Virus record (IMG/VR): IMGVR_UViG_3300032245_000795
Span: 32,001-96,000 of that record
Strand: one strand, 5' to 3'
Source of the DNA: a virus
Length of the DNA stretch: 64,000 nt
Both the position numbers and the translations under genes were made by a program. Position 1 is the stretch's first letter, and each line of letters begins with the position of its first letter. The notes under the pieces were generated by a model that was not told the DNA's origin, ran no database searches, and worked only from the letters and a program-made list of their open reading frames with translations. This document shows, piece after piece, positions 2,890 through 28,407 of the stretch.

Positions 2890-5800
2890 ATGTCTAATCC
2901 ATCAAACCTGTATGCAGAGAAAATATACGCAGAACATCCTGTTGCTCTTTGGGCACTGGATGATACTGCAGACTATATAAGTTTGATAACAGAGCCTAAA
3001 AGAAATCTCTTAAATTGGGAAATAGATAACGGATCAGCATCGTCCTATTCTTTATCTGATGAGCCCTTTTCAGAAAGTGGCACATTTAAAATAACGGGAG
3101 ATATAACATCAGAGTTATCTGGTCAAGTTGTATGTGTAAGTGAAAACATTATCAACTTTAGCCTTTTAAATAAAGAACTATCTACTTTTTCAATTGGTGG
3201 ATTCTTTAACTCTCTAAGTGCCTATGCATCTAGTTTTGAAATAGGCTATGAGTATTTTGACACAACCTCTGGAAACAAAGTTCAAAGATTAAAAAGTTAT
3301 CCAGTTTTTCTATACAATGAATGGTTTTTTATATCGGAAACTTTTGAAATGCCAGAAGATAATACAGAGTTTAAAGTTGTCGTAAAGATTAATTATATTG
3401 GTGGAGCAGCAGATACTAGCGATTATACTTTTTTGGTTAATGGTATAAGTGTTGGACAATGGTCTGAAGAGTTTAATTCTTCTTCTCTTGGGGTAACAAA
3501 AGAATTGCTGCCATCTGAAATAGCAATAGAAGAATCTTATGGAGTACCAGCAAGCGCCTATGGCCTTGAAGATAAAAAGGGATACTATCTTGTTTCTAAT
3601 AACAGCCTTATGGCAAAAAACACTGGTATACCTTTAGTATATGGTGCATCAAATCTTACAAAACTTTTACCAAACAAAGATCAAAATGGTCAACCAAAAC
3701 CATCTTTGATTATTCCAGGACTTGGTTTTATGGGAGAAGATGGCCACAACAAAGAATATACTTTGGAGACATGGATAAGAATAAATTCAGACTCTGTAAC
3801 AAAAAAAAGAATTATTGGTCCAATTGGATCTGATGATGGTTTATATGTTGACGGTCCATTTTTAACATTAAAGATAGGCTCAGTCTTTGGCTCATACTAT
3901 GTTGGAGAATGGACCAGGCCAATGCTTACGCATATCAGACTTTCTGAAAATAATGGTTCTCTTTTAGTAAACGGAGAAGAGGTAATATCTTTAACCTATT
4001 TGACCTCAGAGTTGAACTTTCCTAAAAGTATCTTGAATGAAAAAAATCAAGACTGGATAGGCTTTTATGCATACGAAGATGTTTCTCCAATAGAAATTGA
4101 TTGCGTTGCAATATATACTTATCAGGTTCCAGTAGTCCTTGCTAAAAAAAGATTTGTGTATGGCCAGGGAGTTGAATTTCCAGAGGGGATCAATCAAGCA
4201 TATAGTGGATCATCAATCTACATAGACTACCCATTTGCAGACTATACAAACAACTACTCTTATCCTTCACTTGGAAATTGGTCTCAAGGCATAGTAGATA
4301 ACCTTGAAATAAAAAATAATTTGCTTTCTACTCCAGACTATAGTCTTCCAGATATTGTCTTAGGCTCTGGCTCACTCAGTGAAATCTATGAAAGTTTAAA
4401 AAATCAACAAAATGAAAATGAAAATTTCTTTTCTTTTGGAAGTAACTCTGGTCATATGTACTTTGAAAATTTAAATTTCCTAAAAGAAAAGATAAGATCT
4501 TTTTATGGTTCATTTAAATTTTTATCTAACTCTCCAGACAAGCAGGTCTTATTCCGAGTTAATTCTGGAACATCTTCTAACTACTTTGAGATATATTCTG
4601 AAGGTCTTTCTGTTGTCTATAAATTGTACTATGGAGAAACTGAAAATATTCTTTTAACTCTTTCTGCTGTAGAAATAGGAGAAGTGTTTTCTGTAGGTAT
4701 TGACATAGACAAAATTTCTAAATATTTTGGTGGAACGGTTGCGTCGTTTTTTGGAAACTCAAACTCTTTAAGTTTTTATATTGCTGGAAATTCAAACCTA
4801 ACAGAAACATTTAGTGGAAGGATATATAAAGTAGGATTCTGTACCTCTAGAAATCACAAAAAGATAAATCAACTGTTTAATGAAAAAGGAATTGTTATAG
4901 AAAATGATAACGTTTTTCTTGAGTATTTACAAACCCCAGATGTAGAATACAACTCTACAGAAAATTATTTTGGAACTAATCCAGCAGAATGGGATACCCT
5001 GATAAGTGGAGGAGAAGTTTCTTCAGATGGTGCTGCTACACTTCAAGAACATACAGCAAGTTATACTCTATCACCATATTTATCATTTGATAAGTATTCT
5101 CTTGATATAGATATTCAAGGCTACTGGGAAGACTATGTTCCTCTTACATATTTTGCTCAATATGTAAAAGATAAAAAATATAAAGAATATTATGATCTAG
5201 ATTTTATTCAGTTTAATATAAACTATCCTTCACCTTCAGTGTTTGTAGAAGAAGAACAATTTGGATCCTGGACTTATAAGGAGTTGTCAGAAGAATATGG
5301 TAGTCCCGTTCAAAGAGATTATTCTTCTTTAGGAAATCAACTTTTTACTAACTACTTAAACTACGATGATTTAAAAAACAGAGCCTACAAAAACTACAAA
5401 TATGATACAAGTAATTCTCTTGTAAGATCTTACGTTACTTTTCAATATACAAAAAATGGAGCAAACCTTTCATCAGAAAATTTTATAAACATTGAGAAGC
5501 CTTCAAAAGATTCCATAGTTATTCCAGGTGAAGACTGGAACTATACTAAATATGAAGTTGTAGATAACATGATTATTTATCCCCCACTTAATTCAAATAT
5601 TTTAGACATTTCCTTAGTAACTCATTTAGAGTTTAAAGTAAAAGCAATACTAAAAAATAAAGTTTCTTTAAGAAGTTTGGAATATGCATCTCAAGCGTTT
5701 AATGCAACATCTACAAACCCTATAGGAACTAGATTTGGTAATGAGATATATCCATACAAAAAGTCTGGATTCTATTATGATTATAAAAGCCAAAATCCTT

Positions 5801-6600
5801 TTACAATCTATAAAGGAACATCTCCATATCTTTATTTAACAAGATATACTGGTATGGAGTTAAAAGGTTCAATTGATCCATTAGAAAATCGTGGTTTGTC
5901 TATTCCAATTAATAAAGAAAAATCTAACAACTTTAAAGTTTTAGCAATGCAGGCAGCAATTAGGTACGACAAGGATGCTTTCCCATATGCTTCTACAGAG
6001 ATCTTTGAAATTAAATCAAGATACTCGCATATAAAGTTTTACATGGTTGCTATACATCCAACTGGAGAAAGAGCAAAAATTTATGCAATTAACGTAAAGA
6101 CTGGCAGACTAGAAAACGGAATAAACTTTTATTGGAATGGAAAAATTGTAAAGGAGCCAGTCATAACCATTAAAGAATGGGGCTTCCTTGGAATTTCTTT
6201 TCCAAAATTGCTAGATTTTGAAAGCAGAGTTGGGCTTCTTAATTTTAATGGTCCACTAACATTTAATACTGTTTCTTACTATCAGTCAACAAACCTTCAA
6301 GAAATTCAAAAGATAGAGGAGAGACCTTGGTTTGCAGTTGAAAATGCTCCACCAGAAGTCCTTGAATGGGATTACTGGAGATCTACTGCATTCCTTTGGG
6401 AGGGTGTTTTAGTGGTGTCTTCAAAGAACTACTATGGCGTAAGTCCGTCAACAATATATAAAAGTTATACTGGAACAAATAAGATTATTATTGATAGCCC
6501 AGGAATACTTACCATAAGCAATGTTAGATCTAATGATGACTACGAGTATAGGATCTATTCTGGTATAACTTCAAAACTAACAACCGTTACTGCCGTCTAA
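2890..6600 (+). CDS. large putative virion protein with LamG/ConA-like beta-sandwich segments
   Basis: 1236 aa, rich in beta strands and aromatics. The segment YTLETWIRIN...SLLVNGEEV resembles LamG. It lies just before the head module. Confidence 0.5.
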   Translation: MSNPSNLYAEKIYAEHPVALWALDDTADYISLITEPKRNLLNWEIDNGSASSYSLSDEPFSESGTFKITGDITSELSGQVVCVSENIINFSLLNKELSTFSIGGFFNSLSAYASSFEIGYEYFDTTSGNKVQRLKSYPVFLYNEWFFISETFEMPEDNTEFKVVVKINYIGGAADTSDYTFLVNGISVGQWSEEFNSSSLGVTKELLPSEIAIEESYGVPASAYGLEDKKGYYLVSNNSLMAKNTGIPLVYGASNLTKLLPNKDQNGQPKPSLIIPGLGFMGEDGHNKEYTLETWIRINSDSVTKKRIIGPIGSDDGLYVDGPFLTLKIGSVFGSYYVGEWTRPMLTHIRLSENNGSLLVNGEEVISLTYLTSELNFPKSILNEKNQDWIGFYAYEDVSPIEIDCVAIYTYQVPVVLAKKRFVYGQGVEFPEGINQAYSGSSIYIDYPFADYTNNYSYPSLGNWSQGIVDNLEIKNNLLSTPDYSLPDIVLGSGSLSEIYESLKNQQNENENFFSFGSNSGHMYFENLNFLKEKIRSFYGSFKFLSNSPDKQVLFRVNSGTSSNYFEIYSEGLSVVYKLYYGETENILLTLSAVEIGEVFSVGIDIDKISKYFGGTVASFFGNSNSLSFYIAGNSNLTETFSGRIYKVGFCTSRNHKKINQLFNEKGIVIENDNVFLEYLQTPDVEYNSTENYFGTNPAEWDTLISGGEVSSDGAATLQEHTASYTLSPYLSFDKYSLDIDIQGYWEDYVPLTYFAQYVKDKKYKEYYDLDFIQFNINYPSPSVFVEEEQFGSWTYKELSEEYGSPVQRDYSSLGNQLFTNYLNYDDLKNRAYKNYKYDTSNSLVRSYVTFQYTKNGANLSSENFINIEKPSKDSIVIPGEDWNYTKYEVVDNMIIYPPLNSNILDISLVTHLEFKVKAILKNKVSLRSLEYASQAFNATSTNPIGTRFGNEIYPYKKSGFYYDYKSQNPFTIYKGTSPYLYLTRYTGMELKGSIDPLENRGLSIPINKEKSNNFKVLAMQAAIRYDKDAFPYASTEIFEIKSRYSHIKFYMVAIHPTGERAKIYAINVKTGRLENGINFYWNGKIVKEPVITIKEWGFLGISFPKLLDFESRVGLLNFNGPLTFNTVSYYQSTNLQEIQKIEERPWFAVENAPPEVLEWDYWRSTAFLWEGVLVVSSKNYYGVSPSTIYKSYTGTNKIIIDSPGILTISNVRSNDDYEYRIYSGITSKLTTVTAV

Positions 6601-13745: not shown

Positions 13746-14299
13746 TGACAGAATCAACATCAACGCTAAATACTCCAGGGTTATGGGTAAACAAATATTT
13801 ACAAGAAAAAATTTATGCAAGTGCAGATATAGCAATGCCATTTTTTCCAACAGCGCCCAACACAATAGATGATTTAACCGAACAATGGGTAGTAATAAAT
13901 GATGAAAGACTCTCCTACCAAGGGGTTGTTGCTGTATATGATAGATTGATTAGAATGAGAAGATCTCCATTTCCACATATTAAATGCGAACAACTTCTTT
14001 ATTATTTTTATGCAACTCAAAACAATGTTACTAAAAGTATGATACAGGTACAAGAGGCAGTTTTAAGGCTTATGGACCGTGGAGACGAGTCTGCCGAAGA
14101 CATAAACACTTGGGCAAAAGGAAAAACCCTTGATGGAATGTCATGTAAGTTCTATTTTCATAATTTTAAGATATATCAATTAGAGGAAGTTAGGGATATA
14201 ATTGATTTTGGCACAGCCCGTACTTATGGCGGTAACAAGATAATTATTGACTACGACTACCATCAGATGCAAGACATTATAGACTCAGTAATCTCTTAA
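13745..14299 (+). CDS. tail terminator-like protein
   Basis: Directly upstream of the major tail protein gene; size fits. Confidence 0.45.
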   Translation: MTESTSTLNTPGLWVNKYLQEKIYASADIAMPFFPTAPNTIDDLTEQWVVINDERLSYQGVVAVYDRLIRMRRSPFPHIKCEQLLYYFYATQNNVTKSMIQVQEAVLRLMDRGDESAEDINTWAKGKTLDGMSCKFYFHNFKIYQLEEVRDIIDFGTARTYGGNKIIIDYDYHQMQDIIDSVIS

Positions 14300-15004: not shown

Positions 15005-15041
15005 GAGAGGCTCAATCCTTCGGGGTTGGGCCTTTCTGTTT
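15005..15041 (+). terminator. intrinsic terminator with a UUCG tetraloop
   Basis: GAGAGGCTCAATCC-TTCG-GGGTTGGGCCTTTC then TGTTT. Confidence 0.8.
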
Positions 15042-15049
15042 GGTATACT
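15041..15049 (+). promoter_or_regulatory. extended -10 promoter (TGGTATACT), leaderless start at 15056
   Basis: The last T of the -10 box is exactly 7 nt before ATG 15056; no SD. Confidence 0.65.
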
Positions 15050-15055
15050 TATATA

Positions 15056-15760
15056 ATGCCTACAGAAATATACAAAACCTCAATCATTGAACTCTTTGAT
15101 GGCACAGAAATTTACATTACTCCATTAAAAATAAAATATTTAAAGTTATTTTTAGATGAGTTTCAAAATGTAAAAGCATCAAAAAATGATGATGAAGCAA
15201 TGTTTTATCTTGCTAAGTGTGCAACTATTACTATGAGGCAATATTGCCCAAGTATAAAAAATCAAGAACAACTAGAAGATAATATTGATATGCCAACAAT
15301 TTATAAGTTGTTAGATTTTTCAGCAGGAATAAAGATAAATGAAAAATCTGAAGAGACAGTAAAATCTCAAGCAACAGAAAGTGGATCTTCATGGGATGAT
15401 CTAGATTTAGCAGAGTTAGAGGCAGAGGTGTTTTTGCTTGGTATATGGAAAGATTATGATGAACTAGAATCATCTATGTCAATGCCAGAAATAATGGCAA
15501 CACTTAAAGTAAAAAGAGAACTTGACTATTCTCAAAAAAAGTTTCTTGCTGCCATGCAAGGTGTTGATTTAGATAAGGCAAGCAACAAAGGCAATGCATG
15601 GGAAGAAATGAAAGCCAGGGTGTTTAGTGGTGGTCAAGCAGCAGACTCTAAAGATATTGTTGCTCTTCAAGGATACAATGCACAAAAAGCAGGGTTTGGA
15701 ATTGGTATGGGCTTAACCTATGAAAAATTAGACGAATCTGTACCGTCCAGCGTGGTATAA
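15056..15760 (+). CDS. tail assembly chaperone, long (G-T-like) form encoded in one frame
   Basis: The first ~100 aa are paralogous to 15790..16116, followed by a C-terminal WDDLDLAELEAEVFLLG domain; lies between the tail tube and TMP genes. Confidence 0.75.
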   Translation: MPTEIYKTSIIELFDGTEIYITPLKIKYLKLFLDEFQNVKASKNDDEAMFYLAKCATITMRQYCPSIKNQEQLEDNIDMPTIYKLLDFSAGIKINEKSEETVKSQATESGSSWDDLDLAELEAEVFLLGIWKDYDELESSMSMPEIMATLKVKRELDYSQKKFLAAMQGVDLDKASNKGNAWEEMKARVFSGGQAADSKDIVALQGYNAQKAGFGIGMGLTYEKLDESVPSSVV

Positions 15761-15789: not shown

Positions 15790-16116
15790 ATGGCTAATAA
15801 GCCTTCAACCGATAGAACTATCAAGTTAATAGATGGAACAGAAATTGCAGTAAGACCACTTAAACTATCATTGCTTAGACCATTTATGTCTAAGTTTGCA
15901 TTGCTTTCAGCAGTCTCTGATGATAACGATAAGTCTATGGATATTCTTATTGATTGCGTACAAATTGCAATGAAACAATTCAAGCCAGAATTGGCAGAAA
16001 GTAGAGAGGTTCTAGAAGATAGCCTGGACCTTCCTACAGTTTACGAAATTATTGATGCAGCATCAGGTGTTCAGAACTCTGAGACAAGCGCAGTATTATC
16101 TTCGTTAACAAAATAA
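15790..16116 (+). CDS. tail assembly chaperone, short (G-like) form
   Basis: LIDGTEIAVRPLKL...LEDSLDLPTVYEIIDAASG; strong SD; immediately before the TMP gene. Confidence 0.75.
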   Translation: MANKPSTDRTIKLIDGTEIAVRPLKLSLLRPFMSKFALLSAVSDDNDKSMDILIDCVQIAMKQFKPELAESREVLEDSLDLPTVYEIIDAASGVQNSETSAVLSSLTK

Positions 16117-16137: not shown

Positions 16138-19100
16138 TTGGCAGATGTAAACTCTAATATAAATATTAATTTTGATACAACTGCCGCTCTTGCACAACTA
16201 CGTTCTTTACAGGCAGGCCTCAGCAGGTTTCATCAAACACTTGCTGAGGGCAACCTGGCTGCTGCAAATGCTCAAAAAGGTTTAAACGCACAACTTATAC
16301 AATCTGTTGGTGCTACAGGAAAATTCTCAGCAAGCCAAGTTAAAGTTGCTGGAAGCACACTAGCGTTCACGTCTGCATTAGAAAAAAATAAACTATCTCT
16401 TCGTGATTATTACAGATACACCATGGCAGCAGCAACTGCCAATACTCGTGTAATGGGGAAGGCATTTGCAGAAGAACGAGAGATTATAAATCGTGCTCGC
16501 AGAGATAGAGTAAAAGCCTTACAAGCACAATATATCCAGATGAATAAATCCAATGCTGGGTTTATGGATGCAATTAAAATTATGCCAAAAAGCCTTCAAA
16601 TGGCTAGTGGAAAGTTTACAGAACTTGGAACAAGAATTCAGTATGCTGCACAAAAACAACAGTTCTTAAATCAACTATTAAAACAAGGATCAACACAACT
16701 ATTAAACTTTGGTAAGAATACTCAGTGGGCTGGTCGCCAGTTGATGGTTGGTCTCACAATGCCACTTGCCTTGTTTGGATCTGCAGCAGCAAAAGCATTT
16801 AAAGAGTTTGACGCTGAAGTTGTTAAGTTCCGTCGTGTATATGGAAATGCATTTACAAATGATGCAGAGGTTAATGCAGCAGTTGAAAATATAAGAAAAT
16901 TATCAAATGAGTATGTAAAGTATGGAGTCTCTGTTACAAAGACTATGGAGATGGCTGCAACAGCAGCAGCAGCAGGCTTTGAAGGATCAGCACTTACAAC
17001 ACAGGTTGAAACAGCAACAAAGTTAGCAGTACTTGGCCAGATTGAGCAGCAGCAGGCACTTGAAACAACAATATCTTTGCAAACTGCATTTGGTCTTTCT
17101 AGTGAAGACCTTGCAAAGAAAATTAACTTTCTTAACGCAGTAGAAAACCAAACACTTTTATCTATTGAAGATTTAACTATTGCAATTCCAAAAGCAGCAC
17201 CAGTTATAAAGCAACTTGGTGGATCTGTTGAAGATTTAGCCTTCTTCCTTACAGCAATGAAAGAGGGTGGAATTAATGCATCAGAAGGTGCTAACGCACT
17301 TAAGTCTGGTCTTGCATCATTAATTAATCCATCTGACAAAGCAGCAAAGTTTCTTGGCAACTTAGGAATTAATGTTAAAGGACTTGTTGAAGCAAACAAG
17401 GGTGACATAAAAGGAATTGTTGTTGGATTTGCAAGAGCCCTTGATGAACTTGATCCACTTAATCGTGCAAGAGCAATTGAGCAGATGTTTGGTAAGTTCC
17501 AGTTTGCACGTCTATCAACATTATTTCAGAATGTAACTAAGGATGGATCTCAAGCATCAAGAGCATTTCAATTAGCAGGGGCATCAATAGAAGAGTTAGC
17601 AATCTTATCCGAAAGAGAAATGAAGAAGATAGAAGACTCAACTGGTGCTAAATTCCAGGCAGCATTAGAGAACCTTAAGCAAGAAATTATGCCTTTAGGA
17701 AAAGCATTTCTTGAGGCTTTAACACCAGTAGTTAAGTTTTTTTCAGGACTTCTTGAAAAGTTTAATGGTCTTGGAGATAATACAAAAAAGGTTATTGCAA
17801 TAACTGTTGCAGCAGTTGCAGGTCTTGGCCCAGTACTACTTATGACATTTGGTCTTCTAATGAATGGTGTTGCAAACGTTATTAAATTGTTTGCAATGCT
17901 TCGTGGAGGAATTGCTAAGTTAAACGGACAAACAGGTGTAATGGGTGCAGGCTTTAACTATATGACACAAGAGCAGATTGAAAATGCTGCATCTTCTGAA
18001 CAACTTCACCAAACACATTCAAGATTAATACAAGTTTTTAATGTTGAAAAAAGTTCTGTAAATGCTCTTGCTGCATCCTACAATTCATTAAGTACACAGA
18101 TGAGAGGCATGGCAACACAGAACCCCGCGTTATTTGCAGGTGGAGTTCGTGGTGCTAAAAGAGCAGTAAGCGGATTACCACCAGTTAAAAAGTATAGAGA
18201 AGGAGTACTGAGCGTACCAGGTCCAAAGGGTGCAGGAGATGTTGTTCCAGCAATGCTTTCTCCAGGAGAAGCAGTTATTCCTACAGAAACAACTAATAAA
18301 TATAGAGGTTTGATTTCTGCAATGTTCCAAGATAAAGTTCCAGGATTTATGGCTGGAAGACTTCCTGGAGGACCAGGCAGAGGAATACCTTTATCATCAG
18401 GCCCAGAAGCCTTTAGAAAAGCGCAGCAGGCACAATACAGAAGAGTAAACGATGCTCGTCAGGGATATTCTGAACCACATCCAGAAAAGAAAACAGGACC
18501 AACTTTTGTTGGAATGCCAAAGGGATCTCAAGAAGCGTCACAGTCTAGACAAATTTTAGATAAGATTTCAGATCAAGTTAAAATTGGAAAATTTGGATCT
18601 GTTCCACCAACAAACTTTGGAACAATGCTTCAATCATTTTCTGGAAGAAGTTTTCCTGCACGTGGAGTTGGCGGTGTATACAGAAAATCTAATGGACAGA
18701 TAGTAGTAGTAAAACCAACAATAGATGAAAAAACTGCATTGGCAGAAGTTCGTGCTACTCAAATTGCTAGAGAAGTTCATGGACTTGTATCTCCAAAGCA
18801 AACTATTAGAACAATGATGGATCCAACAGATCCAACAGGTCAAAGAAAGTTTATTGTGATTGAGTCCCCATATGATCCAAGAATAGCCTCTATGACTGGT
18901 AAGTTTTCAAAGTCTGACATGGTTAAGCAATTAGTTGCATCAACGCTAAGAGGAGACAAAGATTTACAAAAACCAAACTTGTCTGGAAATGTGTTAGCAG
19001 ATGTTGGAACTGCTGGAGTATTCGATAGGGCATCTGGCTTTAGAGATTTTGCTAAAGTTATGCCAAGCATGGAACAACAAGCAGTTGTAAATCTTCTTGG

Positions 19101-22100
19101 AGTTAAGGGTGGAGCAAAGAAGTTTTTTGCACAAGAAACATCTGGTGTAGCAGCATCTATGTCTCCAAAAGACTATGATTTAGCAATAAAGACAGAAATT
19201 TCTAAATCAATTCCAAGACTAGAAAAACTTCTTAAGACTTGGAATTTAAATCCAGAAGAAAAAATTGTTTATGGAAATATGCTACAAAGACTCAGAGATG
19301 GAGCAAAAACAGATTGGGCAGCATTACAGCCTATACATGCTCGTGCAGGAGAAGGAGTTGCTAAATTAGAATTAGGAAACTTTGAAAAATTCCAAAATGT
19401 TCCAGAGTCAAAAGCACAAGTTGAAAAACTTGTAGAGGGTTTATCAAAAGATGCAGCAGAACAATTGGAAAAGTTACCTAAAGAACAAAGAGATAGAGTG
19501 CTTGCTGCACTAGGAAAAGAAAAACCAGCACCAACACATATGAGCCAAGCAAGGCTAATGAAATTTGTAGAACAAAATATGGTTTACAAAGATGGTCTAT
19601 TCCATGATAAAAAATCTTTAGATGCTGGAAGTACAACATCTGGAAAAACTTATGAAGAAGTTATGAAGAAAGTTTTTTATCAGATGGGCCTTCAAGAAAA
19701 AGATGGTTCTTTTGTAAGCGATAAAAAATTAAATGTTCCATCTAAACTAAAGTCTGCAATGAGCACTGTAGACAAAGCAGGTGGAGGCTGGAGAACAAAC
19801 GTACCAAAAAGTTCATTGCTTTGGAAAGCCTTAGATGCAGAAGAGCAAAGTTTTAGAGCAGCAAATATGGCTGCAGGCAAAAACGATCCATTAAAAAATG
19901 TAAGAGAAAAACTTAAGTCTCTAGGTTATAATGAAAAACAAATTGCTACTGCGCTAAGATCTGAGTTATCGCATGTAGAAAAAACTGGAGAATCTGGAAG
20001 AGGTCCTGCAAAGTATTCAAAGGGATCAGCAATGTTCGACTTAAGACTACTAAATAACTACATGAATACAAAGACTAGACCTCAAAGTATTTTAGACTGG
20101 AACGCAAAAAATGGAAATGCTCTTGGATTAACAGCAACACAGATTAAAGAATTTCAAAAAGCAGCAAACTATATGAAACCTGGGGCACACCCAATAACAT
20201 TAGATGATATAAAATTAGTTCAAAAATCCGCACAACTTGATGTTTTAGCAGATGAATATCTAAAACAACAAAAGGTAAAGCCAAAGGGTTTTCCAAAACT
20301 AGGACAAGTTAATGCTTCTAAGGGGCTTTTGGCACTTCTTGATGACAGAATTGGAACAGGATACTACAAATCTTCAAAACCAATTTTTAATTTATCAAGC
20401 GGTGTAGATCAAAGTCAAAAGGTTTTAGTAGATCCAAATAACGAATTTAAAGTCGATACTAAGACTGGAAAAGTAACAAAGTTAACAAACGCTAATACAG
20501 GAGCAAAGCCTGCTGGAGCAGTTGCTAGTAGTGGAAGTTCAAGAGACAGAAGGACTACGACAGAAACACCAACACAAAGAGTTGCAACAAGAAGTCAACT
20601 TACAAGTTTCCGCAGAGGGTTTGGTAAAATTCCTGGATTCTCTATGCCTGGAAAAATCAAGGGAGACCCAAGACTAACAAACCCTACAGTAAAACAAGGA
20701 CAGTTAGCATTGCAGTTACGTGGCAAAGGATATAGCCAGGTAGAAATTGATAGAGCACTTAGAAGGTTTGCAGAAAAAGAATTAAAAAATAAAGAATCAC
20801 AGGTTCGTGCTGCTGAAAAATCAGCAAGAGCAGAAGCAGCAAGACAAAAAGAACAAGCAGCAATACAAAAAAAACAAACAGATGTTGCAAGAAAAGCATT
20901 TATAGAAAATGAGCGCAGATCACAACTAAATGCAGCACAAGCAAGAACATATGATGCTGCAGTAAAAGAAGATCAAAAGAGAACAATAAAAAATCAAAAA
21001 CAAACTGAAAAAGTAAATGCTAAACAAACAAGAATAGCACGTCAAGAAAAGGTTGGTAGATTCTCTGGCGGTGCATCTATGGCTCTTGGAACTGTTGGTA
21101 TGGGTCTTATGATGTCTGGGAATACAAATGCTGGCATGGCTGTATCAGGTTTGTCAGCCCTTGCAGGAATGGCCCCGATGCTTGCTGGTATGGGACCAGT
21201 AGGAGTAGCCCTGACTGCTGTAGCAGCAGTTGGTGGAGGGCTTTGGATGCTAGACAAGGCAGCAAAGAAAGCAGCAGAATCACAGTCTAGACAAGTTGAT
21301 GCAACAAGAGCAACAACAGAAAAAATGAAAACCATTGGAGAAATGAATGGCAAAGTTGGAGCATCTGAAATTTATGCAAGAAAAAGAAAAGAATCGGTAG
21401 CCAATAGATATTCTATTGGTTTTGAAAGAGGAAAAACCCAATATGGATCAGACTTTTTAAAAGAACAAGTTGGAAAAGATATGTTTTCTGGCATTATAGA
21501 AAGTTTAAAGTCTGGTTCTAAAAATGTTGCATCTCAGGTAGCAACAGAACTTGCTGGTTATATTTCTGATGGAATATTAACTGCACAGCAAGCAAACAGT
21601 ATTGCTGATCAGATTGGAATTGAGTTAGGCAATACTACAATTGGTGCAGATATTACTGGAAAACTACTAGAATTGGTCGGTCCAAATGGAGAAGATTTAT
21701 TAACAAATCCACTAGAAGTAAGAGTTAAAATAGTTAAAGAACAACAGAAAAATACTCAATTAGTTATGAGTGAGTTAGAAAAGTATTATAATTGGTCAGG
21801 TAAAAACAATAACGGTTTTGATGACAAGTCCGATGCTGCAAACGCTGCAGAAGTTTTTGCATCTCAGGCTGCAGCAGCAAATGTACAGGATTTAGAGTTT
21901 AATCAAGCGCAAATAGATTCTTTAAATCTTGAGTACGACAATAAAATAAAAATACTTGAAGCACAAAAAGCAACTACATCAGACAAAGCAAAGCAGTTAG
22001 AAATTCAAGGAAAAATTGATGCTGCTGAGAAAGATCGTATAACAGGAACAAAAAAATTACGAGAAAATAATAGAAAAATTATACAAGAACAAATGAAAGC

Positions 22101-25100
22101 CCTTAAGTTTGTAAAGACAAATCAAAAACAAGGTTCAGAGGCAAGTGTAGAAACTGCATACTTTGAAGCATTAAAAACTCAAGTTAGGGACAAGTACAAA
22201 GACGATCCAACACAAAATGCATTTGTAGATAAATTTTTTCAAGTTGCACAGAATGCAGGTAGCCAAGAAATAGAAGCAAAGATTATGACTGTTGTTGGTT
22301 CTGGTCAAATGCCAGTTACATCAGCAGTTAAGTTAATGGAAATGTTTGCTGGAGATGAAAAAGGACTTAATAAGATTCTTAATGTAACAACATCAATTGC
22401 AGATCCTGGAAAAGTAACAGAGTTCTTAAACTCTATTGAATTAATAACAGATCCCAATACAAAAAAAGAGATTATGGTAGAACTAACACAAAAGTCTCCA
22501 AAAGAAGCAGAAGGAATAATGTCTGCTTTTAATATGATGAAATTATTAAATCCAGAAATAAATATAGACTTCTTTTTTAAAGATGGTGGCGCAGCAGGAA
22601 TTGGAAAACTTAAGGAAATTGCAGACAAACTTGAAGAAGTTCAAAAAATAAAAGAGCCAATAACAACAAAGTTTTTGCTAGAGACAAAAGAAATTGGTGG
22701 GGTAAACCTAGAAGATCTTATTCCAATTATGGAAAAATACAAAAATCAACCAGATGTTATAAAAAAACAAGTTATTTCACAATATATTGTTATAAAAGAA
22801 ACACTTAATCCAGGAGAGATTGCAGCAGAAAAGAAAAGGCTTTTAGCAGGATATAAGGGAAATCCAAAGGGAGCCGAGCAGTATTCGGAGTACCTAAACT
22901 CTCCAGAAGGAACAAAATATGTTACAAATAAGGTTGTTGAAAATAAAATTGCACAAGCCATTAAGCCTGAGATAGAAGCACTAGAGGCAGCACGTCTTGA
23001 AGCAGAAAAACTAAAGGGAGATAAAGTTACTGACCCATTTGAATGGATGTTAGCAGCATTAAAGAATGTTCGCAACGCTGCAATAGATGCAAAGGGTGGA
23101 ATTGAAGAATTAAAAAGAGCACTTGCAAAAATTGGTCCAAAGGCTGTAGGAGATAAGTTCTTAGGAATAGATCAACAAATGATTGCTCAAGGACGTAATA
23201 AGCAGTTTATTGATTACGCTATGGGATTAACACCTGATGAGCAGGCAAAACTTTTCACTACCGCTGGACCTAAAAATAAAAGTGGTAAAAACAAGGGAAG
23301 AATACAAGACCCATATAACAAGGGCAAATTATTACCAGAGACAGCAAAACAAGGCGATGTAGTACTATCTAGCCTTGGAAAAACATATAATAGTTTCTTT
23401 GATGCAAAAGTCATTGGAGATTTCAATGCTGCAATGGGCAGATCTCTTTCATCAATAAAAGATCAAGAGAAGGCAAGAATTAAATTAGTTGCTGCTGGAT
23501 ATGATTCTGCAACAATAGAAGGTCTAATATCAGATGAATATACTACACAGTTAATTGCTTCAGGTAAAATAACAGAAGGTCAACTAAAGCAAAATGTTGA
23601 AATTTCTAAAGAACTTGCCAATAGACAAAAAATTAATAGCCTACTTTCTAGAGGTACATCAGAATTGCAAAGGCAAGCAGATATGTCAAGAGCAGCACAG
23701 GCTGCAAAGTTCTTACGTAGTCAAGGTGTTTCAGAAGATGGTGTGAGGGCAGCCCTTGCAGATGCAGGTTCATTGTCAGAAGCAATTGCTGCTATGGATC
23801 AATATAACTCTTCTGCTGGGCTTGCTGCTGGTACACTTAAAACCATTGTTGATGGACTTAACGCTATAAAGGCAAACTCAAATATAGAATTAATTCTTAA
23901 ATTTACAACAGCAAATGTTTCAGGGCAGATTCAGCAAGGAGCAGAAGCAGCCAAAAAGATAATGGACTCAAAGAGAACAGTCTACAATAATCTAACTGCT
24001 GACAAATTAAAAAATGCAACTTCGGCATATACAGATTCAAGTAAAGCCCCTCAACAAGTTGGTAAGATTGCAACAGCAACTGTAGATGCAAGGTATAAAG
24101 CAACAAATACTCCAATACCAGTGATATCAGAAGGCGCAACAATAAAGAGTCTTCAAAAAGCAATGGAAACTAAGGCTAAAGAAATAGATCTTTCATCTTC
24201 AAATCTTAGCAAGGCTAAATCTGCAGCGTCTGCAGTAAGAGATCAAATTTCAAATGCAGAAAACGCTTTGCAGACAGCACTAGATAATGCTAATGCAGGC
24301 GTTGATAAAGCAATTAAGGGAGTTCAAGATGTCATTAGAGGTTATGAAAATCAGATCAAGTCAATAGAAAAAACTATAAAGTCCAGAGAAGATGAAATAA
24401 AGAAAAGATTTACAGATAAAATAGAGGCATTTAATAAAGAAAACCAAATGCTAAGTAATGACCTTGCAATAATGGACAAGGCTGCAGAAGATATTAATGA
24501 GAAGTATGATAAGCAAGTAGAAGCCTTGCAGGAAGTAAACAAATTAAATCAAGAAATTATTGATGCACAGGGACAGCAGTTAGACCTGGCTGATGCTCTT
24601 TCTCAAGGTGATATCGCAGCAGCAGCAAGAGTTGCAAATGAGATGTCAGCATCTTATGCAAACAATCAAGCAGACACAATAATGCAGGGTATTGAACTTG
24701 CCAGAACTAATGATTTGTCAGCCTTAACTGGTGCAGAAAGCGGACTAACTGCAGATGCTATTTCAGAAAGACAATTTGCTATAAGTCAAGAAATTTATAA
24801 ACTAGAAACAGATCCTGCAAGATTGGCAATTGAAGCAGAAATACTAGCACTAAATGAAAGTGCTCTTGCAGTACAAGAATTAATTGCTGCAAAACAAGAA
24901 GAGATTGATCAAATTGAGGCTGGAAGAGCAAATATTTTAGCAGGTGTAGAGGCAGCCCATGCAGCAAACCTAAAGGCTTTGAATGATTCTTTAGTTCCAC
25001 TTGATGAGGCAGTAAAGAAAAATGAAGGAATATTAAAAAAGTTAGAAGATGAAGAAGAAGCATTGTCAGCACAAAAAGGATATCTTGAAGCAATTGCAGA

Positions 25101-28100
25101 TGAAGCAGTTGATATTGATAACACTACTGGAATGACCCTTGATGATTGGGTAGACACAGAAGACAAAGTAAAATCAATTGAAGAATTAGCAGCAGCATAT
25201 GCTCTTTCAACACTTGCAGCCCAAGCAGCAGTTGCAGCAGCAAGTACATCCTGGGGTGAAATTTTAAATTCCATTAATAAAATTCCTGATAGTATTGAAA
25301 CAAAATTAATAGTTGAGAAGATTGAGAATATAACACAAAATATTAAAAAAACATATACTGATGATGGTAGCGCAGCATCTGCAGCAGCAGCAGCAACTGC
25401 TGCAACTGCACAAGCAGAAGCAAAAGCAAAGGCCATTGCTGCAGCACTAAGAAAATTAACATCTGGACAAGCCTTAACAGCAGAAGAAAAGGCCCTGCTT
25501 TCAATAAACGGAGATGCAGATACATCAGCAGCAGACAAAGCAGTTAAAGATGCAGCAGATGTAAAGGCTAAGGCAATTGCAGATGCTCTAAGAAGATTAA
25601 ATAGCGGTCAATTGTTAACATCACAAGAAAGAGAACTTCTTGGTATGGCACCTGCTACAGACATGTATGATCCAAATGATCCATCTCACAAGGGTTCTTT
25701 TGAAACAGGTTGGTCATTAAATTCATGGGTTCATGCAATGGGCAAAGAATCAGCAGCACCCATACTAAAGAGCATGGGCTACTGGGCAGATGGTGGAGTT
25801 GTATATAGAAAAGCAGGAAGTCCTAGCCCAGAGTTTAAGGCAAAGGGAACAGATACTGTTCCAGCAATGCTAACTCCTGGAGAGTTTGTAATTAATAAGG
25901 CTGCAGTAAAAAAGTACGGACCAAAATTCTTTAAAATACTTAATGACAAAAAGTATCCAAAAAAGACTTCAGCAACAACTCCAACAGAAGTACTTGACAT
26001 AATAAGAAACCTTGGTTATTCAGTACCAGTTAAACCAACTTCTGCTTACGATTCTAACAATCAACCTACTGGAAGTGCAACTGGAAGATACTGGGGAGAG
26101 TTAGAAAGACTTTACGAAAGTTCTCCAATTGGTTTTGATGGCAAAGGAAAGCCAATACTTAACACTACAGGTAAAGATCCTTGGGGTGGTACAGAGATCC
26201 CAGGCCTTCCATTTAATGGAACAGTTCCACAATTTTCAGACTACTGGCATCAATTAGCAGAACAACCACAAAAGTTTAGTGGGCCTGCAATGGGTATAGA
26301 CAAACCTGTGGACCGCTATGCAGGATCTGGCGCATCTATGGGTGGTATTGGTAACGGAGCATACGGCTTGACTGGCCTACAGATGCTTTCTAGAGGCGGT
26401 ATGGTTAATCCATTAATGATGTCTGAAGGCGGTTCAGTGCCTTGGTATAAAAAGGCAGGAAATTTCCTAGTAGAAGCAGTTAAGGAAACTGGAAGATCTA
26501 TTGACTGGTTAACTGGAATGTATACAGCAGGACAAACTGGACAAAGAGATCCTATGATGTTCAGCAAAGACAATAAAGTTCTACTTAAGAATATCAATGC
26601 AGCAGTAGATGCTGGGTACGGCTCAGAAGCAACTAAAGTTTTGGCAACCAAAACTGCTATGAGCGGAGTAAATGTAGGATCACTTTTTCTTGGTGGGGCA
26701 TTAGGAAGCGCAACAGCAAGAGGTGCAGTTGGTGCATACGGAATATCAAAAGGAATTCCAGCACTTGAAACACTCTTGCCAACAGGATCTTTGTCTTATG
26801 CTACAAAAACAGGATTAGGGGCTGCATCTAACTTAGGATCTAGTACATATTTAAAGACTACAAACCCATTTACTCCAAAAACCACAGTATATGCCAAGGG
26901 GCCTGGAGGAATAGAAGATATCCCATTTCTTGATAAGACCAGAAAAGCAAGATTCTTGGAATATGCTAAGGGACTTAATAATAAAGATGCCAACTATTTA
27001 TCTCCAGATACTATAGCAGGAATTAAAAAAGTTGAAGCAGACGTAAAGAAAAGATTTGATGAAATTGAAGAAATAAAAAATGGAACACTTAATGGTAATC
27101 CATTGCCCGATCCAGAGAGAACCCTAGGATACTGGACACGTTATAACACAGACGATTTAATGCAAATTGCATTGGCAAAAAAATATAATATTCCACCTAT
27201 TAGTCAAGATTATTTAGCAGAGTATGCAAATATGGGATTAACTGCTTTCTATGATAAAAATTGGGCAGAGATTCATACAGCACTTGGTAGACAAACACTT
27301 GGTAGAGAGTTTGTTGGATACAGAGGTCTTAGCCACAAAGACCTTGCTGATATTGTTGGTTATAAAGAAGTAAACAAATTAGAAGATTTTACAGGAAAGG
27401 TTATAGGTAAAGAATCTGCATACCTCGGTAGCAGGGGATACGGACCAACACCTGGAGCCACACTTAAGCCTAACTGGGAAGAACTTTTAGCAGGAAGAGA
27501 CGCAAGAATTGCACCGTACGACTTTATAAATAATAAAGATCTTTTTGATTTAGAACCAGGAATAGGGGGAGTAGGAAATGCCTGGGTACCAGATGTTGCT
27601 AAATCATTTACAGAAAACCTTGATTGGGCAAAAAGAATAACAACAAATAATGATACTGGAGGAGGAGGTGTCTCTGCAATTGCAAAGGTTAACTTTGGTT
27701 CAGATGTTTTGGGGATTGACAGTATAACAAAATTAGGACTTGGTGGTTCACATGCAGACCCAACTCTTACAGAGCCATTTGTTTCTGCCTTTACTGAATT
27801 TATTCTTAAAAAGGTAACTCCTATGGCTCACAGAATTCCAGATGATACTGGGGAATTTATAACTAATGACTATGGTACCAAATGGGTTAATGGACCAGGA
27901 TATTCAAGATTAATAGATGAGTATGAATTTGATGCAGTAAGAACTTTACCTAAACCATATATAATTCCAGAAACTTTTCCTAACACAACAACGGCAAGCA
28001 TTGATAATTTAACCTTAGCAGCAAAATCACAAGCAATAGCGGATGCTATTAAAAAACAAGGTCTTCAAAATGCAGCAAAGGCAGAGGGTATGGCAAAAAG

Positions 28101-28407
28101 ATATGGAATGTCATCTGGTGGAGTAGTTCCTAAATATTTTGCTGCTGGTGGATACGCCTCTGGAACAGACATAGTACCAGCAATGCTAACTCCAGGAGAA
28201 TTTGTAATGAGTAAGTATGCTGTTGAAGCACACGGTGCAGATACTATGAAGGCAATTAATAATGGATCTTCCGTTGGTGACTCAGTGTATAATTATAGTA
28301 TCAGTGTAAATGTAAAGTCTGATTCAAACCCAGATGAAATTGCAAGAGCAGTAATGACTCAAATAAAGAGTATTGATTCACAAAAGATTAGAGGAGTTAG
28401 AATATAA
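16138..28407 (+). CDS. tape measure protein (TP901-type core) with inserted enzymatic cargo domains
   Basis: TTG start with SD GAGGTG; TP901-like core (AMKEGGINASEGANALKSGL); long Ala/Lys/Glu helical regions and hydrophobic segments; three PAML(S/T)PGE motifs. Confidence 0.92.
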   Translation: MADVNSNININFDTTAALAQLRSLQAGLSRFHQTLAEGNLAAANAQKGLNAQLIQSVGATGKFSASQVKVAGSTLAFTSALEKNKLSLRDYYRYTMAAATANTRVMGKAFAEEREIINRARRDRVKALQAQYIQMNKSNAGFMDAIKIMPKSLQMASGKFTELGTRIQYAAQKQQFLNQLLKQGSTQLLNFGKNTQWAGRQLMVGLTMPLALFGSAAAKAFKEFDAEVVKFRRVYGNAFTNDAEVNAAVENIRKLSNEYVKYGVSVTKTMEMAATAAAAGFEGSALTTQVETATKLAVLGQIEQQQALETTISLQTAFGLSSEDLAKKINFLNAVENQTLLSIEDLTIAIPKAAPVIKQLGGSVEDLAFFLTAMKEGGINASEGANALKSGLASLINPSDKAAKFLGNLGINVKGLVEANKGDIKGIVVGFARALDELDPLNRARAIEQMFGKFQFARLSTLFQNVTKDGSQASRAFQLAGASIEELAILSEREMKKIEDSTGAKFQAALENLKQEIMPLGKAFLEALTPVVKFFSGLLEKFNGLGDNTKKVIAITVAAVAGLGPVLLMTFGLLMNGVANVIKLFAMLRGGIAKLNGQTGVMGAGFNYMTQEQIENAASSEQLHQTHSRLIQVFNVEKSSVNALAASYNSLSTQMRGMATQNPALFAGGVRGAKRAVSGLPPVKKYREGVLSVPGPKGAGDVVPAMLSPGEAVIPTETTNKYRGLISAMFQDKVPGFMAGRLPGGPGRGIPLSSGPEAFRKAQQAQYRRVNDARQGYSEPHPEKKTGPTFVGMPKGSQEASQSRQILDKISDQVKIGKFGSVPPTNFGTMLQSFSGRSFPARGVGGVYRKSNGQIVVVKPTIDEKTALAEVRATQIAREVHGLVSPKQTIRTMMDPTDPTGQRKFIVIESPYDPRIASMTGKFSKSDMVKQLVASTLRGDKDLQKPNLSGNVLADVGTAGVFDRASGFRDFAKVMPSMEQQAVVNLLGVKGGAKKFFAQETSGVAASMSPKDYDLAIKTEISKSIPRLEKLLKTWNLNPEEKIVYGNMLQRLRDGAKTDWAALQPIHARAGEGVAKLELGNFEKFQNVPESKAQVEKLVEGLSKDAAEQLEKLPKEQRDRVLAALGKEKPAPTHMSQARLMKFVEQNMVYKDGLFHDKKSLDAGSTTSGKTYEEVMKKVFYQMGLQEKDGSFVSDKKLNVPSKLKSAMSTVDKAGGGWRTNVPKSSLLWKALDAEEQSFRAANMAAGKNDPLKNVREKLKSLGYNEKQIATALRSELSHVEKTGESGRGPAKYSKGSAMFDLRLLNNYMNTKTRPQSILDWNAKNGNALGLTATQIKEFQKAANYMKPGAHPITLDDIKLVQKSAQLDVLADEYLKQQKVKPKGFPKLGQVNASKGLLALLDDRIGTGYYKSSKPIFNLSSGVDQSQKVLVDPNNEFKVDTKTGKVTKLTNANTGAKPAGAVASSGSSRDRRTTTETPTQRVATRSQLTSFRRGFGKIPGFSMPGKIKGDPRLTNPTVKQGQLALQLRGKGYSQVEIDRALRRFAEKELKNKESQVRAAEKSARAEAARQKEQAAIQKKQTDVARKAFIENERRSQLNAAQARTYDAAVKEDQKRTIKNQKQTEKVNAKQTRIARQEKVGRFSGGASMALGTVGMGLMMSGNTNAGMAVSGLSALAGMAPMLAGMGPVGVALTAVAAVGGGLWMLDKAAKKAAESQSRQVDATRATTEKMKTIGEMNGKVGASEIYARKRKESVANRYSIGFERGKTQYGSDFLKEQVGKDMFSGIIESLKSGSKNVASQVATELAGYISDGILTAQQANSIADQIGIELGNTTIGADITGKLLELVGPNGEDLLTNPLEVRVKIVKEQQKNTQLVMSELEKYYNWSGKNNNGFDDKSDAANAAEVFASQAAAANVQDLEFNQAQIDSLNLEYDNKIKILEAQKATTSDKAKQLEIQGKIDAAEKDRITGTKKLRENNRKIIQEQMKALKFVKTNQKQGSEASVETAYFEALKTQVRDKYKDDPTQNAFVDKFFQVAQNAGSQEIEAKIMTVVGSGQMPVTSAVKLMEMFAGDEKGLNKILNVTTSIADPGKVTEFLNSIELITDPNTKKEIMVELTQKSPKEAEGIMSAFNMMKLLNPEINIDFFFKDGGAAGIGKLKEIADKLEEVQKIKEPITTKFLLETKEIGGVNLEDLIPIMEKYKNQPDVIKKQVISQYIVIKETLNPGEIAAEKKRLLAGYKGNPKGAEQYSEYLNSPEGTKYVTNKVVENKIAQAIKPEIEALEAARLEAEKLKGDKVTDPFEWMLAALKNVRNAAIDAKGGIEELKRALAKIGPKAVGDKFLGIDQQMIAQGRNKQFIDYAMGLTPDEQAKLFTTAGPKNKSGKNKGRIQDPYNKGKLLPETAKQGDVVLSSLGKTYNSFFDAKVIGDFNAAMGRSLSSIKDQEKARIKLVAAGYDSATIEGLISDEYTTQLIASGKITEGQLKQNVEISKELANRQKINSLLSRGTSELQRQADMSRAAQAAKFLRSQGVSEDGVRAALADAGSLSEAIAAMDQYNSSAGLAAGTLKTIVDGLNAIKANSNIELILKFTTANVSGQIQQGAEAAKKIMDSKRTVYNNLTADKLKNATSAYTDSSKAPQQVGKIATATVDARYKATNTPIPVISEGATIKSLQKAMETKAKEIDLSSSNLSKAKSAASAVRDQISNAENALQTALDNANAGVDKAIKGVQDVIRGYENQIKSIEKTIKSREDEIKKRFTDKIEAFNKENQMLSNDLAIMDKAAEDINEKYDKQVEALQEVNKLNQEIIDAQGQQLDLADALSQGDIAAAARVANEMSASYANNQADTIMQGIELARTNDLSALTGAESGLTADAISERQFAISQEIYKLETDPARLAIEAEILALNESALAVQELIAAKQEEIDQIEAGRANILAGVEAAHAANLKALNDSLVPLDEAVKKNEGILKKLEDEEEALSAQKGYLEAIADEAVDIDNTTGMTLDDWVDTEDKVKSIEELAAAYALSTLAAQAAVAAASTSWGEILNSINKIPDSIETKLIVEKIENITQNIKKTYTDDGSAASAAAAATAATAQAEAKAKAIAAALRKLTSGQALTAEEKALLSINGDADTSAADKAVKDAADVKAKAIADALRRLNSGQLLTSQERELLGMAPATDMYDPNDPSHKGSFETGWSLNSWVHAMGKESAAPILKSMGYWADGGVVYRKAGSPSPEFKAKGTDTVPAMLTPGEFVINKAAVKKYGPKFFKILNDKKYPKKTSATTPTEVLDIIRNLGYSVPVKPTSAYDSNNQPTGSATGRYWGELERLYESSPIGFDGKGKPILNTTGKDPWGGTEIPGLPFNGTVPQFSDYWHQLAEQPQKFSGPAMGIDKPVDRYAGSGASMGGIGNGAYGLTGLQMLSRGGMVNPLMMSEGGSVPWYKKAGNFLVEAVKETGRSIDWLTGMYTAGQTGQRDPMMFSKDNKVLLKNINAAVDAGYGSEATKVLATKTAMSGVNVGSLFLGGALGSATARGAVGAYGISKGIPALETLLPTGSLSYATKTGLGAASNLGSSTYLKTTNPFTPKTTVYAKGPGGIEDIPFLDKTRKARFLEYAKGLNNKDANYLSPDTIAGIKKVEADVKKRFDEIEEIKNGTLNGNPLPDPERTLGYWTRYNTDDLMQIALAKKYNIPPISQDYLAEYANMGLTAFYDKNWAEIHTALGRQTLGREFVGYRGLSHKDLADIVGYKEVNKLEDFTGKVIGKESAYLGSRGYGPTPGATLKPNWEELLAGRDARIAPYDFINNKDLFDLEPGIGGVGNAWVPDVAKSFTENLDWAKRITTNNDTGGGGVSAIAKVNFGSDVLGIDSITKLGLGGSHADPTLTEPFVSAFTEFILKKVTPMAHRIPDDTGEFITNDYGTKWVNGPGYSRLIDEYEFDAVRTLPKPYIIPETFPNTTTASIDNLTLAAKSQAIADAIKKQGLQNAAKAEGMAKRYGMSSGGVVPKYFAAGGYASGTDIVPAMLTPGEFVMSKYAVEAHGADTMKAINNGSSVGDSVYNYSISVNVKSDSNPDEIARAVMTQIKSIDSQKIRGVRI
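25420..25650 (+). repeat. tandem ~29-aa repeat inside the TMP
   Basis: AKAKAIAAALRKLTSGQALTAEEKALLSI versus VKAKAIADALRRLNSGQLLTSQERELLGM. Confidence 0.75.

Follow-up and report, generated by a model that had tools for sequence, protein, structure and literature searches.

Genomic context and features of the tape measure gene

The window analysed here is a stretch of 64,000 nucleotides (nt) of viral DNA (positions 32,001 to 96,000 of IMG/VR record IMGVR_UViG_3300032245_000795), from a source record of 115 kb rated complete by CheckV. It contains a very large tape measure protein (TMP) gene, in which a scaffold conserved among relatives carries cassettes with predicted enzyme folds and copies of a repeated module. 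Comparison with relatives supported a role of these modules as joints at which cassettes are exchanged. The parts of the gene, in positions of the window, are as follows.

16138..28407, + strand: whole TMP gene; one open frame of 4,089 amino acids (aa) with a TTG start
16138..18177, + strand: N-terminal TMP core (aa 1–680) with a strongly hydrophobic segment at aa 549–589, from TMP family matches and hydropathy
18169..18351, + strand: modA, module copy M1 (aa 678–738), KKYREG..SVPGPKGAGDVVPAMLSPGEAVIP..KVPGFMAG; module hidden Markov model (HMM) match at E 1e-36
18496..19341, + strand: cassette K, protein-kinase-like (aa 787–1068), from an AlphaFold2 (AF2) model, fold matches and conserved residues
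19363..20628, + strand: cassette U, a conserved domain (aa 1076–1497) whose last residues, IPGFSMPG, resemble the tail of modA
20635..25752, + strand: Ala/Lys/Glu/Gln-rich region read as a helical ruler (aa 1500–3205) from its composition, with a Gly/Ala/Met-rich hydrophobic stretch at aa 1644–1708
25780..25962, + strand: internal copy of modB, M2 (aa 3215–3275), from motif position, DNA repeat and HMM annotation
25960..26373, + strand: GPW, Gly/Pro/Trp-rich segment (aa 3275–3412), from composition
26383..26433, + strand: left junction, MLSRGG and MMSEGG (aa 3416–3432), the first GG box of modB split by insertion
26404..28161, + strand: swappable cassette (aa ~3423–4008) with a hydrophobic stretch and an ADP-ribosyltransferase (ART) domain; the sequence of relatives differs between matching flanks
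26434..26952, + strand: MEM, Gly/Ala/Ser-rich, mildly hydrophobic stretch (aa 3433–3605)
27172..27954, + strand: ART-fold domain (aa 3679–3939), from an AF2 model, fold matches and conserved residues
28105..28404, + strand: terminal modB, M3 (aa 3990–4049), and conserved C-terminal tail (aa 4050–4089)

The first 680 residues matched PhageMin_Tail (PF10145) with 100 bits (cut-off 33.2, E 2e-28), TIGR01760 (tape_meas_TP901) with 117 bits (cut-off 28.8, E 7e-34) and TMP families of PHROGs (best E 1.5e-98), and every TMP family match was confined to this core. A search with the core retrieved at least 595 IMG/VR relatives, the best 80 of which shared 66–99% identity with it. The gene order was portal, protease, capsid, major tail, two chaperone-like open reading frames (ORFs), TMP, a 219-aa ORF in the distal-tail position and a minor tail protein of 1,444 aa; chaperone-like and distal-tail roles were assigned from gene order and from PHROGs of unknown function, not from named families. 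An earlier reading of this stretch (hereafter the original prediction) had called the 4,089-aa frame a TMP. The family matches and the gene context bore this out and identified the gene, at the level of sequence, as a genuine TMP gene within an ordinary siphophage tail module. The ruler region yielded just weak coiled-coil-type Pfam matches and was colinear across most relatives; its helical reading comes from composition. As judged from these alignments, the conserved scaffold comprises the TP901-type N-terminal core, the hydrophobic segments, the Ala/Lys/Glu/Gln-rich region and the terminal module with its tail.

Past residue 680, and apart from the repeated module, no match to a Pfam, NCBIfam or PHROG family was obtained. 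Neither megablast of the whole gene nor tblastn of aa 655–1521 found a match among 50,697 phage records, and the C-terminal 905 aa matched other phages in these records within the motif module only.

A repeated module of about 60 residues

The motif VPAML[ST]PGE was found at aa 703, 3241 and 4013 (nt 18244, 25858 and 28174; M1, M2 and M3), which verified the three copies that the original prediction had placed in the TMP. No further copy was present in the whole 115-kb genome. The DNA cores of M2 and M3 were 82% identical over 62 nt, and that of M1 was 65% identical. For comparison, HMMs specific to the individual parts were built and used to annotate approximately 100 related TMP ORFs (relatives are labelled with L-numbers). 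The motif had been described as a short linker. The repeat itself is real, but its contexts in the related TMPs revealed the core of a module of ~60 aa rather than an 11-residue linker. This module begins with a single or double box of the form hydrophobic-x-S/A-x-GG-hydrophobic-V, followed by G-T-D-x-VPAMLTPGEFV and then by a short, helix-like tail (K-x-A-V-x-x-x-G...IN). It occurs in two related flavours: modB has this layout, and modA reads SVPGPKGAGDVVPAMLSPGEAVIP...KVPGFMAG. In short relatives (L004, L005, L007, L008 and L057), a single module stood in place of the internal and terminal modB.

All eight xxxGG-type motifs listed previously were found at their places. GG dipeptides were not enriched overall, with 32 counted in 4,089 aa versus ~28 estimated from a Gly content of ~8%. 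The GG motifs adjoining the modules were conserved in relatives and belong to the module; by this comparison, only the module-associated GG boxes are meaningful.

Many TMP PHROG profiles matched the module close to their C-terminal end. In the TMPs of Clavibacter phage CN1A and Caulobacter phage Seuss and in many PHROG TMP families, ~60–130 aa separated it from the C-terminus, and tblastn located it under TMP annotations in phages of Gordonia, Rhodococcus, Nocardia, Stenotrophomonas and others. Because it is widespread near the C-termini of unrelated TMPs, M3 appears to be an ordinary TMP end piece, with M1 and M2 as its internal copies. A modB-like module (58% identity over 52 aa, at ~aa 590–640) was also observed in a 950-aa virion protein of the T4-like cyanophage Synechococcus phage S-SCSM1 (L059:1234-4086), annotated as "endolysin" and located between a hub assembly gene and the annotated TMP. 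Thus, the module is not confined to siphophage TMPs.

Cassette exchange at the modules

The most common architecture among the related TMPs was N-terminal core, modA, K, U, ruler, modB and tail (~3,130–3,340 aa). In longer TMPs, the terminal modB was preceded by one added "cassette plus modB" unit or by two. The added unit was GPW-MEM-ART in the window, GPW with other cassettes in L022, L031 and L016, and others again in L036, L042, L043 and L012; L029 and L030 carried two added units, and L003 had the altered order ART-modB-MEM. In a more distant group (L050–L055), cassettes of 640–1,700 aa were bracketed by two copies of modA. Two of these, in L053 (10790-15922) and L055 (10826-14686), contained a HAD-IIIB acid phosphatase domain (PF03767) between the modA copies, above the Pfam cut-off (E 1e-17 and 3e-18, respectively). 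The L053 cassette also showed a primase zinc finger just below threshold (28.1 bits, cut-off 28.8). An unrelated cassette of ~510–570 aa replaced both K and U in L121, L130 and L132. In a Pfam scan of 20 alternative cassettes and the L121 cassette, nothing was detected beyond the HAD phosphatase and the sub-threshold primase zinc finger. Overall, TMP lengths in the clade ranged from ~2,860 to >4,380 aa. This alignment of related TMPs had been proposed with the original prediction, and it showed scaffold and motifs kept across ~100 TMPs, with inserts gained, lost or replaced. The GPW-MEM-ART-modB order of the window recurred in ENA contig P0034, an independent assembly with 72% identity.

Two relatives had interrupted TMP regions. 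In L034 (7733-17360, an 81-kb relative), the TMP was spread over two ORFs (2,034 and 1,181 aa) that overlap at 13815-13837 and lie in different frames; the cause could be a frameshift, an error of sequencing or a genuine split. In L045 (IMGVR_UViG_3300045125_000031, 101 kb), the region consisted of short ORFs, the longest of 739 aa, with a fragmented K match; indel errors are likely, with a different genetic code as the alternative.

Breakpoints were determined with blastn of the window against L022, L031, L016 and L044, in which the cassette flanks were 79–90% identical, and against L003. On the left, homology stopped at 26390-26406 (aa 3418–3424, MLSRGG) in the first four relatives and at 26432 (MMSEGG) in L003. 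On the right, it restarted at exactly 28162 (aa 4009, the first codon of GTDIVPAML) in all four of L022, L031, L016 and L044. Between the two breaks, these four relatives carried 400–640 aa of unrelated sequence. At the protein level, the left junction read GLQMLS(R/E)GG, with the sequences of L022 and L031 diverging immediately after it and that of L044 a few residues further on. The unrelated cassettes each carried their own GG box at the right end. Since the breakpoints fall at MLSRGG/MMSEGG and at GTDIVPAML, the cassette sits inside modB, after its first GG box. The 82% identity of the M2 and M3 cores would be enough for short-homology exchange. These sequence comparisons support the view that the modules are recombination joints at which cassettes are exchanged as units. 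They also agree with the earlier proposal that the motifs are recombination anchors and that xxxGG boxes bracket the inserts, as the nucleotide breaks coincide with GG boxes and the GTD-VPAML core.

Predicted folds and conservation of the inserts

The original prediction had distinguished four inserts in the TMP, all of which are real, with limits near those given (K, U, GPW, and MEM with ART). It had also proposed a structure search of the segments; this was run on K and ART, and both gave enzyme folds.

Cassette K was a sharply bounded unit that aligned at 43–93% identity in 56 viral contigs. Its AF2 model (predicted local distance difference test score, pLDDT, 87.6) had a bilobal fold, and the top Foldseek matches were all kinases (CtkA, actin-fragmin kinase, haspin and VPS34). 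With VIA-align, all 50 matches listed were protein-kinase-like (PKL) kinases, led by CotH (Z 12.2, root-mean-square deviation (rmsd) 3.9 over 212 residues), MavQ (10.3), PI4KIIa (10.2), CtkA (9.7) and HipA (9.4). In an alignment of 20 sequences (43–93% identity), the invariant residues were G846 and Y848 of the Gly loop, K859, E870, D940/D942/N947 (D-x-D-x4-N) and D955 (D-x-G), with roles assigned by sequence order, not by superposition. No named kinase family (CotH PF08757, HipA_C, PI3_PI4_kinase) was matched in Pfam, NCBIfam or PHROG at E ≤ 5, and phmmer and profile searches of PDB sequences returned nothing relevant. Based on the model and the alignment, aa 787–1068 are predicted to form a protein-kinase-like fold with conserved catalytic residues, so that the kinase-like insert suggested earlier holds at the fold level. 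K occupied different positions in other TMPs. Its loss in L096 was precise, with modA joined directly to the start of U.

The ART-fold domain gave 109 Foldseek matches in the PDB at E ≤ 1e-3, and the top 50 listed comprised R-S-E ARTs and anthrax lethal factor, the latter through its ART-like domain. With E ~1e-6 and a probability of 1.00, the domain matched Certhrax, CDTa, iota, C3 and VIP2. The VIA-align ranks 1–19 were all ART folds, including VIP2 (Z 14.0, rmsd 3.8 over 157 residues), an ART-ARH toxin (13.8) and C3 (13.0), and the following tier had a Z of 7.4. Across 21 sequences (24–78% identity), E3928 was invariant, and R3729, S3823 and T3825 were nearly invariant. R3729 (YRGLS), S3823-x-T3825 and E3928 lay on strands and in the expected R-S-E order, a placement based on order and secondary structure, not on superposition. 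The E-x-E form was limited to the window protein and its nearest relative; the remaining ART relatives carried E-Y-V. Pfam gave no match (e.g. to PF03496), a profile search of PDB sequences yielded no ART, and the ESM Atlas offered a weak lead (0.88, with PF03496 on 20% of members). An exhaustive HMMER search found 23 relatives of the domain, all of which, except short fragments, were of TMP length (~1,700–3,700 aa). In a viral structure library, the domain matched phage ARTs and fusions of an ART with a MuF, portal or minor capsid protein; no match carried a TMP annotation. From the modelled fold and the conserved R, S-x-T and E, aa 3679–3939 are predicted to form an ART fold of the R-S-E type, in line, at the fold level, with the ART-like insert proposed earlier.

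MEM lay below the hydropathy threshold applied to the TMP. It was present without ART in other long TMP-like proteins, and in L003 it was placed after ART and modB. GPW was conserved at 67–88% in six relatives and joined the terminal modB directly in L017. Both segments were kept in subsets of relatives independently of ART, and neither matched a Pfam, NCBIfam or PHROG family.

In the alignment of cassette U (A4), an S-H pair, D, N and H-P were invariant. U gave no match in Pfam, NCBIfam, PHROG, PDB sequences or the ESM Atlas, and a profile search of proteins comparable in length returned two TMP fragments only; U was seen solely inside these TMPs. In the comparison of 19346-20672, it was present as a divergent allele in L022 (36% protein identity), L031, L044 and L003, and it was conserved in L016. 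Nucleotide matches persisted in the flanks of the divergent alleles, at 90% and 86% identity in L022 and at values down to 72–84% in L031, L044 and L003, and blastn breaks bracketed U at 19318-19359 and 20420-20672 in four of the five relatives compared. Divergent alleles between matching flanks suggest either allele swapping or diversifying selection on U.

Neighbouring genes

The two ORFs directly upstream of the TMP gene (15026-15760 and 15790-16116) each matched phrog_10504, and the first had an extra C-terminal part (phrog_10474). They look like a duplicated chaperone pair replacing the usual G/GT frameshift. Between ribonucleotide reductase and portal, a 1,236-aa ORF (2890-6600) had a sub-threshold Laminin_G_3 match in Pfam and no PHROG match; it may be a further large virion or ejection protein. 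The large terminase gene (48647-50428) was located ~40 kb downstream of the portal gene, amid replication genes, and was followed by a 669-aa ORF (51858-53867) with a PA14 domain and no PHROG match.

Comparison with known systems

The closest precedent is the TMP-fused RNA polymerase in virions of Thermus phage P23-45. Its TMP gp96 (5,002 aa) carries the RNA polymerase, which works on the incoming genome and transcribes the pre-early genes (Chaban et al. 2024, PMC10770324). Both are giant TMPs with membrane or hydrophobic segments and an enzyme in frame that acts in the cytoplasm, or would do so, and the likeness is one of architecture, with different enzymes. Unlike the TMP of the window, gp96 has a single N-terminal RNA polymerase with a metallopeptidase, and neither cassette exchange nor a repeated joint module has been described for it. 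Here, the kinase and ART folds are internal and C-terminal cassettes, polymorphic at modA and modB.

In T5 pb2 and lambda gpH, as here, a C-terminal piece of ~90–130 aa adjoins a Gly-rich region (PMC10038345, PMC12617516). Lambda gpH is cut in this region near its C-terminus, by an unknown protease and at an unknown site (PMC12617516). The T5 cut parts the enzymatic portion of pb2 from the ruler, with a GG-hydrophobic box after the cut. It is, however, a single cut and concerns a cell-wall hydrolase, in contrast to the several motif copies and the predicted enzymes needing cytoplasmic cofactors in the window. TMPs of the mycobacteriophage TM4 type have embedded peptidoglycan hydrolase motifs used at entry (Piuri and Hatfull 2006, as cited in PMC13277306 and PMC12617516). 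They likewise show that enzymatic motifs are tolerated in a TMP, but these act on the cell wall, outside the cytoplasm.

Polymorphic ART toxins, including VIP2-like ones, are fused to MuF, portal and minor capsid proteins and thought to be injected with the DNA (PMC7302621), and phage "polyvalent proteins" are virion proteins with exchangeable conflict enzymes (Iyer et al. 2017, as cited in PMC7824862). Their carriers are head proteins with other joints, whereas the carrier here is a TMP of the tail lumen. The contractile injection system (CIS) effectors Sle1/Tme combine a TMP-like coiled-coil carrier with a swappable functional C-terminal domain and are loaded in the tube lumen (Nagakubo et al. 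2026, PMC13277306). In contrast to the TMP of the window, they are bacterial CIS cargo and no ruler of an infectious phage, and no joints like modA and modB have been described for them. In polymorphic toxins, pre-toxin motifs (VENN in CdiA, the end of the Rhs core) mark the exchange point of toxin domains. There, a single motif lies on the N-terminal side of a toxin that ends the protein; in the TMP of the window, internal cassettes have motifs to either side, and the carrier still has to end in its own putative docking module.

A literature search for the motif string returned no paper. In a search that covered subscription journals thinly, none was found on TMPs bearing a kinase or ART or on cassette exchange at a repeated TMP joint. 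Calling this an undescribed system, as the original prediction did, nevertheless goes too far: a TMP-fused cytoplasmic enzyme (P23-45 gp96, PMC10770324) and ART fusions of head proteins (PMC7302621) have been published.

Proposed mechanism and alternative explanations

We propose, with a probability of roughly 60%, that the terminal modB and tail dock in the hub, that the internal modules are joints at which cassettes are traded, and that the kinase and the ART act on host proteins, early and on the cytoplasmic side. By analogy with T5 pb2C and lambda gpHC, the terminal module copy would stay docked in the tail-tip hub. The internal copies would have arisen by the addition of a "cassette plus module" unit through recombination between module copies, and the modules would therefore be the exchange points of a polymorphic payload. 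TMPs exit the tail first and span the envelope (PMC12617516). The cassettes would thus exit the virion with the TMP, which leaves the tail ahead of the DNA and inserts into the envelope. A glycine zipper is common to TMPs and to Tde1, a type VI secretion system (T6SS) effector, in which it is required for translocation into the target cell (PMC10240207), and on this precedent MEM may have a membrane role. Hydrophobic Gly-rich stretches would then help the adjoining enzyme to the cytoplasmic face. Since a kinase needs ATP and an ART needs NAD+, the predicted enzymes would have to act on the cytoplasmic side. Either tethered to the TMP or cut free, they would modify host proteins at the onset of infection, for takeover or against defence; in function this would resemble T4 Alt, T7 gp0.7 and the TMP-fused RNA polymerase of P23-45. 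On this view, the tail probably carries finished enzymes into the host cell.

Several points weigh against this proposal. The activity of K and ART is deduced from fold and conserved residues, and neither matched any Pfam, NCBIfam or PDB sequence family searched. Confidence in the ART model was just moderate (pLDDT 71), and low in its long loops. Because the first set of relatives was retrieved with the K domain as the query, the nearly universal presence of K in it is biased; the search with the N-terminal core partly corrects for this. Three folded domains of ~30 kDa per trimer would be too big for a tail lumen of ~4 nm, so the cassettes would have to be stored unfolded or in the tip. The route of a TMP-borne domain across the inner membrane is a gap in the proposal, and the source phage is an uncultured IMG/VR contig, known from its sequence alone.

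A true polyprotein is a possible but distinctly less favoured version, in which the GG boxes or modules are processing sites and a tail-assembly or host protease frees the kinase, U, MEM-ART and a hub-bound C-terminal piece of ~100 aa. It refines the favoured explanation and does not exclude it. The original prediction had also suggested cleavage at the motifs, for which the support is analogy with T5 pb2 and lambda gpH. In T5, the cut in pb2 follows R1127 and leaves the 92-aa pb2C in the hub cup (PMC10038345); the terminal modB and tail of the window, at ~100 aa, are of a size near that of pb2C. The T5 sequence reads NSFVPR before the cut and AEGGMMYPG after it, with a box of GG, two hydrophobic residues, x and P resembling SRGGMVNP and SSGGVVPK here. 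This resemblance is a short-motif lead rather than homology, and hhalign of the terminal module (A5) with T5 pb2C was not significant (probability 0.3%); module HMMs did not detect T5 pb2, even with filters off. The right end of each unrelated cassette retains a GG box despite the lack of nucleotide homology there, which suggests selection on the motif itself, although common descent of the modB halves also explains the kept boxes. Pfam searches found no protease domain in the TMP, the lambda cut site is unmapped, and no TMP protease is known (PMC12617516). Equally tentative is the further idea that the tail lumen is a programmable delivery device, in which the modules would be both joints and protease sites and free kinase, ART, phosphatase and other cassettes would enter ahead of the DNA.

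We consider it improbable that the enzymes are not delivered at all and either act late in the producing cell, on host or virion proteins, or are decayed passengers that add ruler length or bulk. A TMP is a late protein, made in a cytoplasm rich in ATP and NAD+; delivery across the inner membrane remains a proposal, and the length range of the clade TMPs shows that length is tolerated, which counts for this alternative. Decay, however, does not fit catalytic residues that are invariant or nearly so across 43–93% (K) and 24–78% (ART) identity. Moreover, an enzyme for the producing cell has no obvious need for fusion to a protein that leaves the tail first, and the TMP-fused enzyme of P23-45 is active in the cell that has just been infected. 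An assembly artefact, with the giant ORF as a metagenomic chimera formed via the repeated motif, is highly implausible. The 62-nt repeat of M2 and M3 could in principle mislead an assembler, but the repeats are far shorter than sequencing reads, and dozens of independent contigs from different samples share the colinear architecture with complete ORFs of ~2,860–4,310 aa. The recurrence of the cassette order in ENA contig P0034 also argues against a chimera.

Implications

The family is large, the N-terminal core having at least 595 relatives in IMG/VR, and TMPs of this kind look commonplace among uncultured aquatic phages rather than exceptional. The known route for delivering pre-made enzymes is through proteins packaged in the head, of which T4 Alt and MuF-toxin fusions are examples. 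Delivery of the cassettes as proposed would make the TMP a second route, acting before any phage gene expression, with a payload that is shuffled between phages at defined joints. This would bear on how phages overcome abortive infection and other early defences, and on why some TMPs far exceed the length that the tail seems to need. It would also bear on the use of the joints for loading chosen proteins into phage tails.

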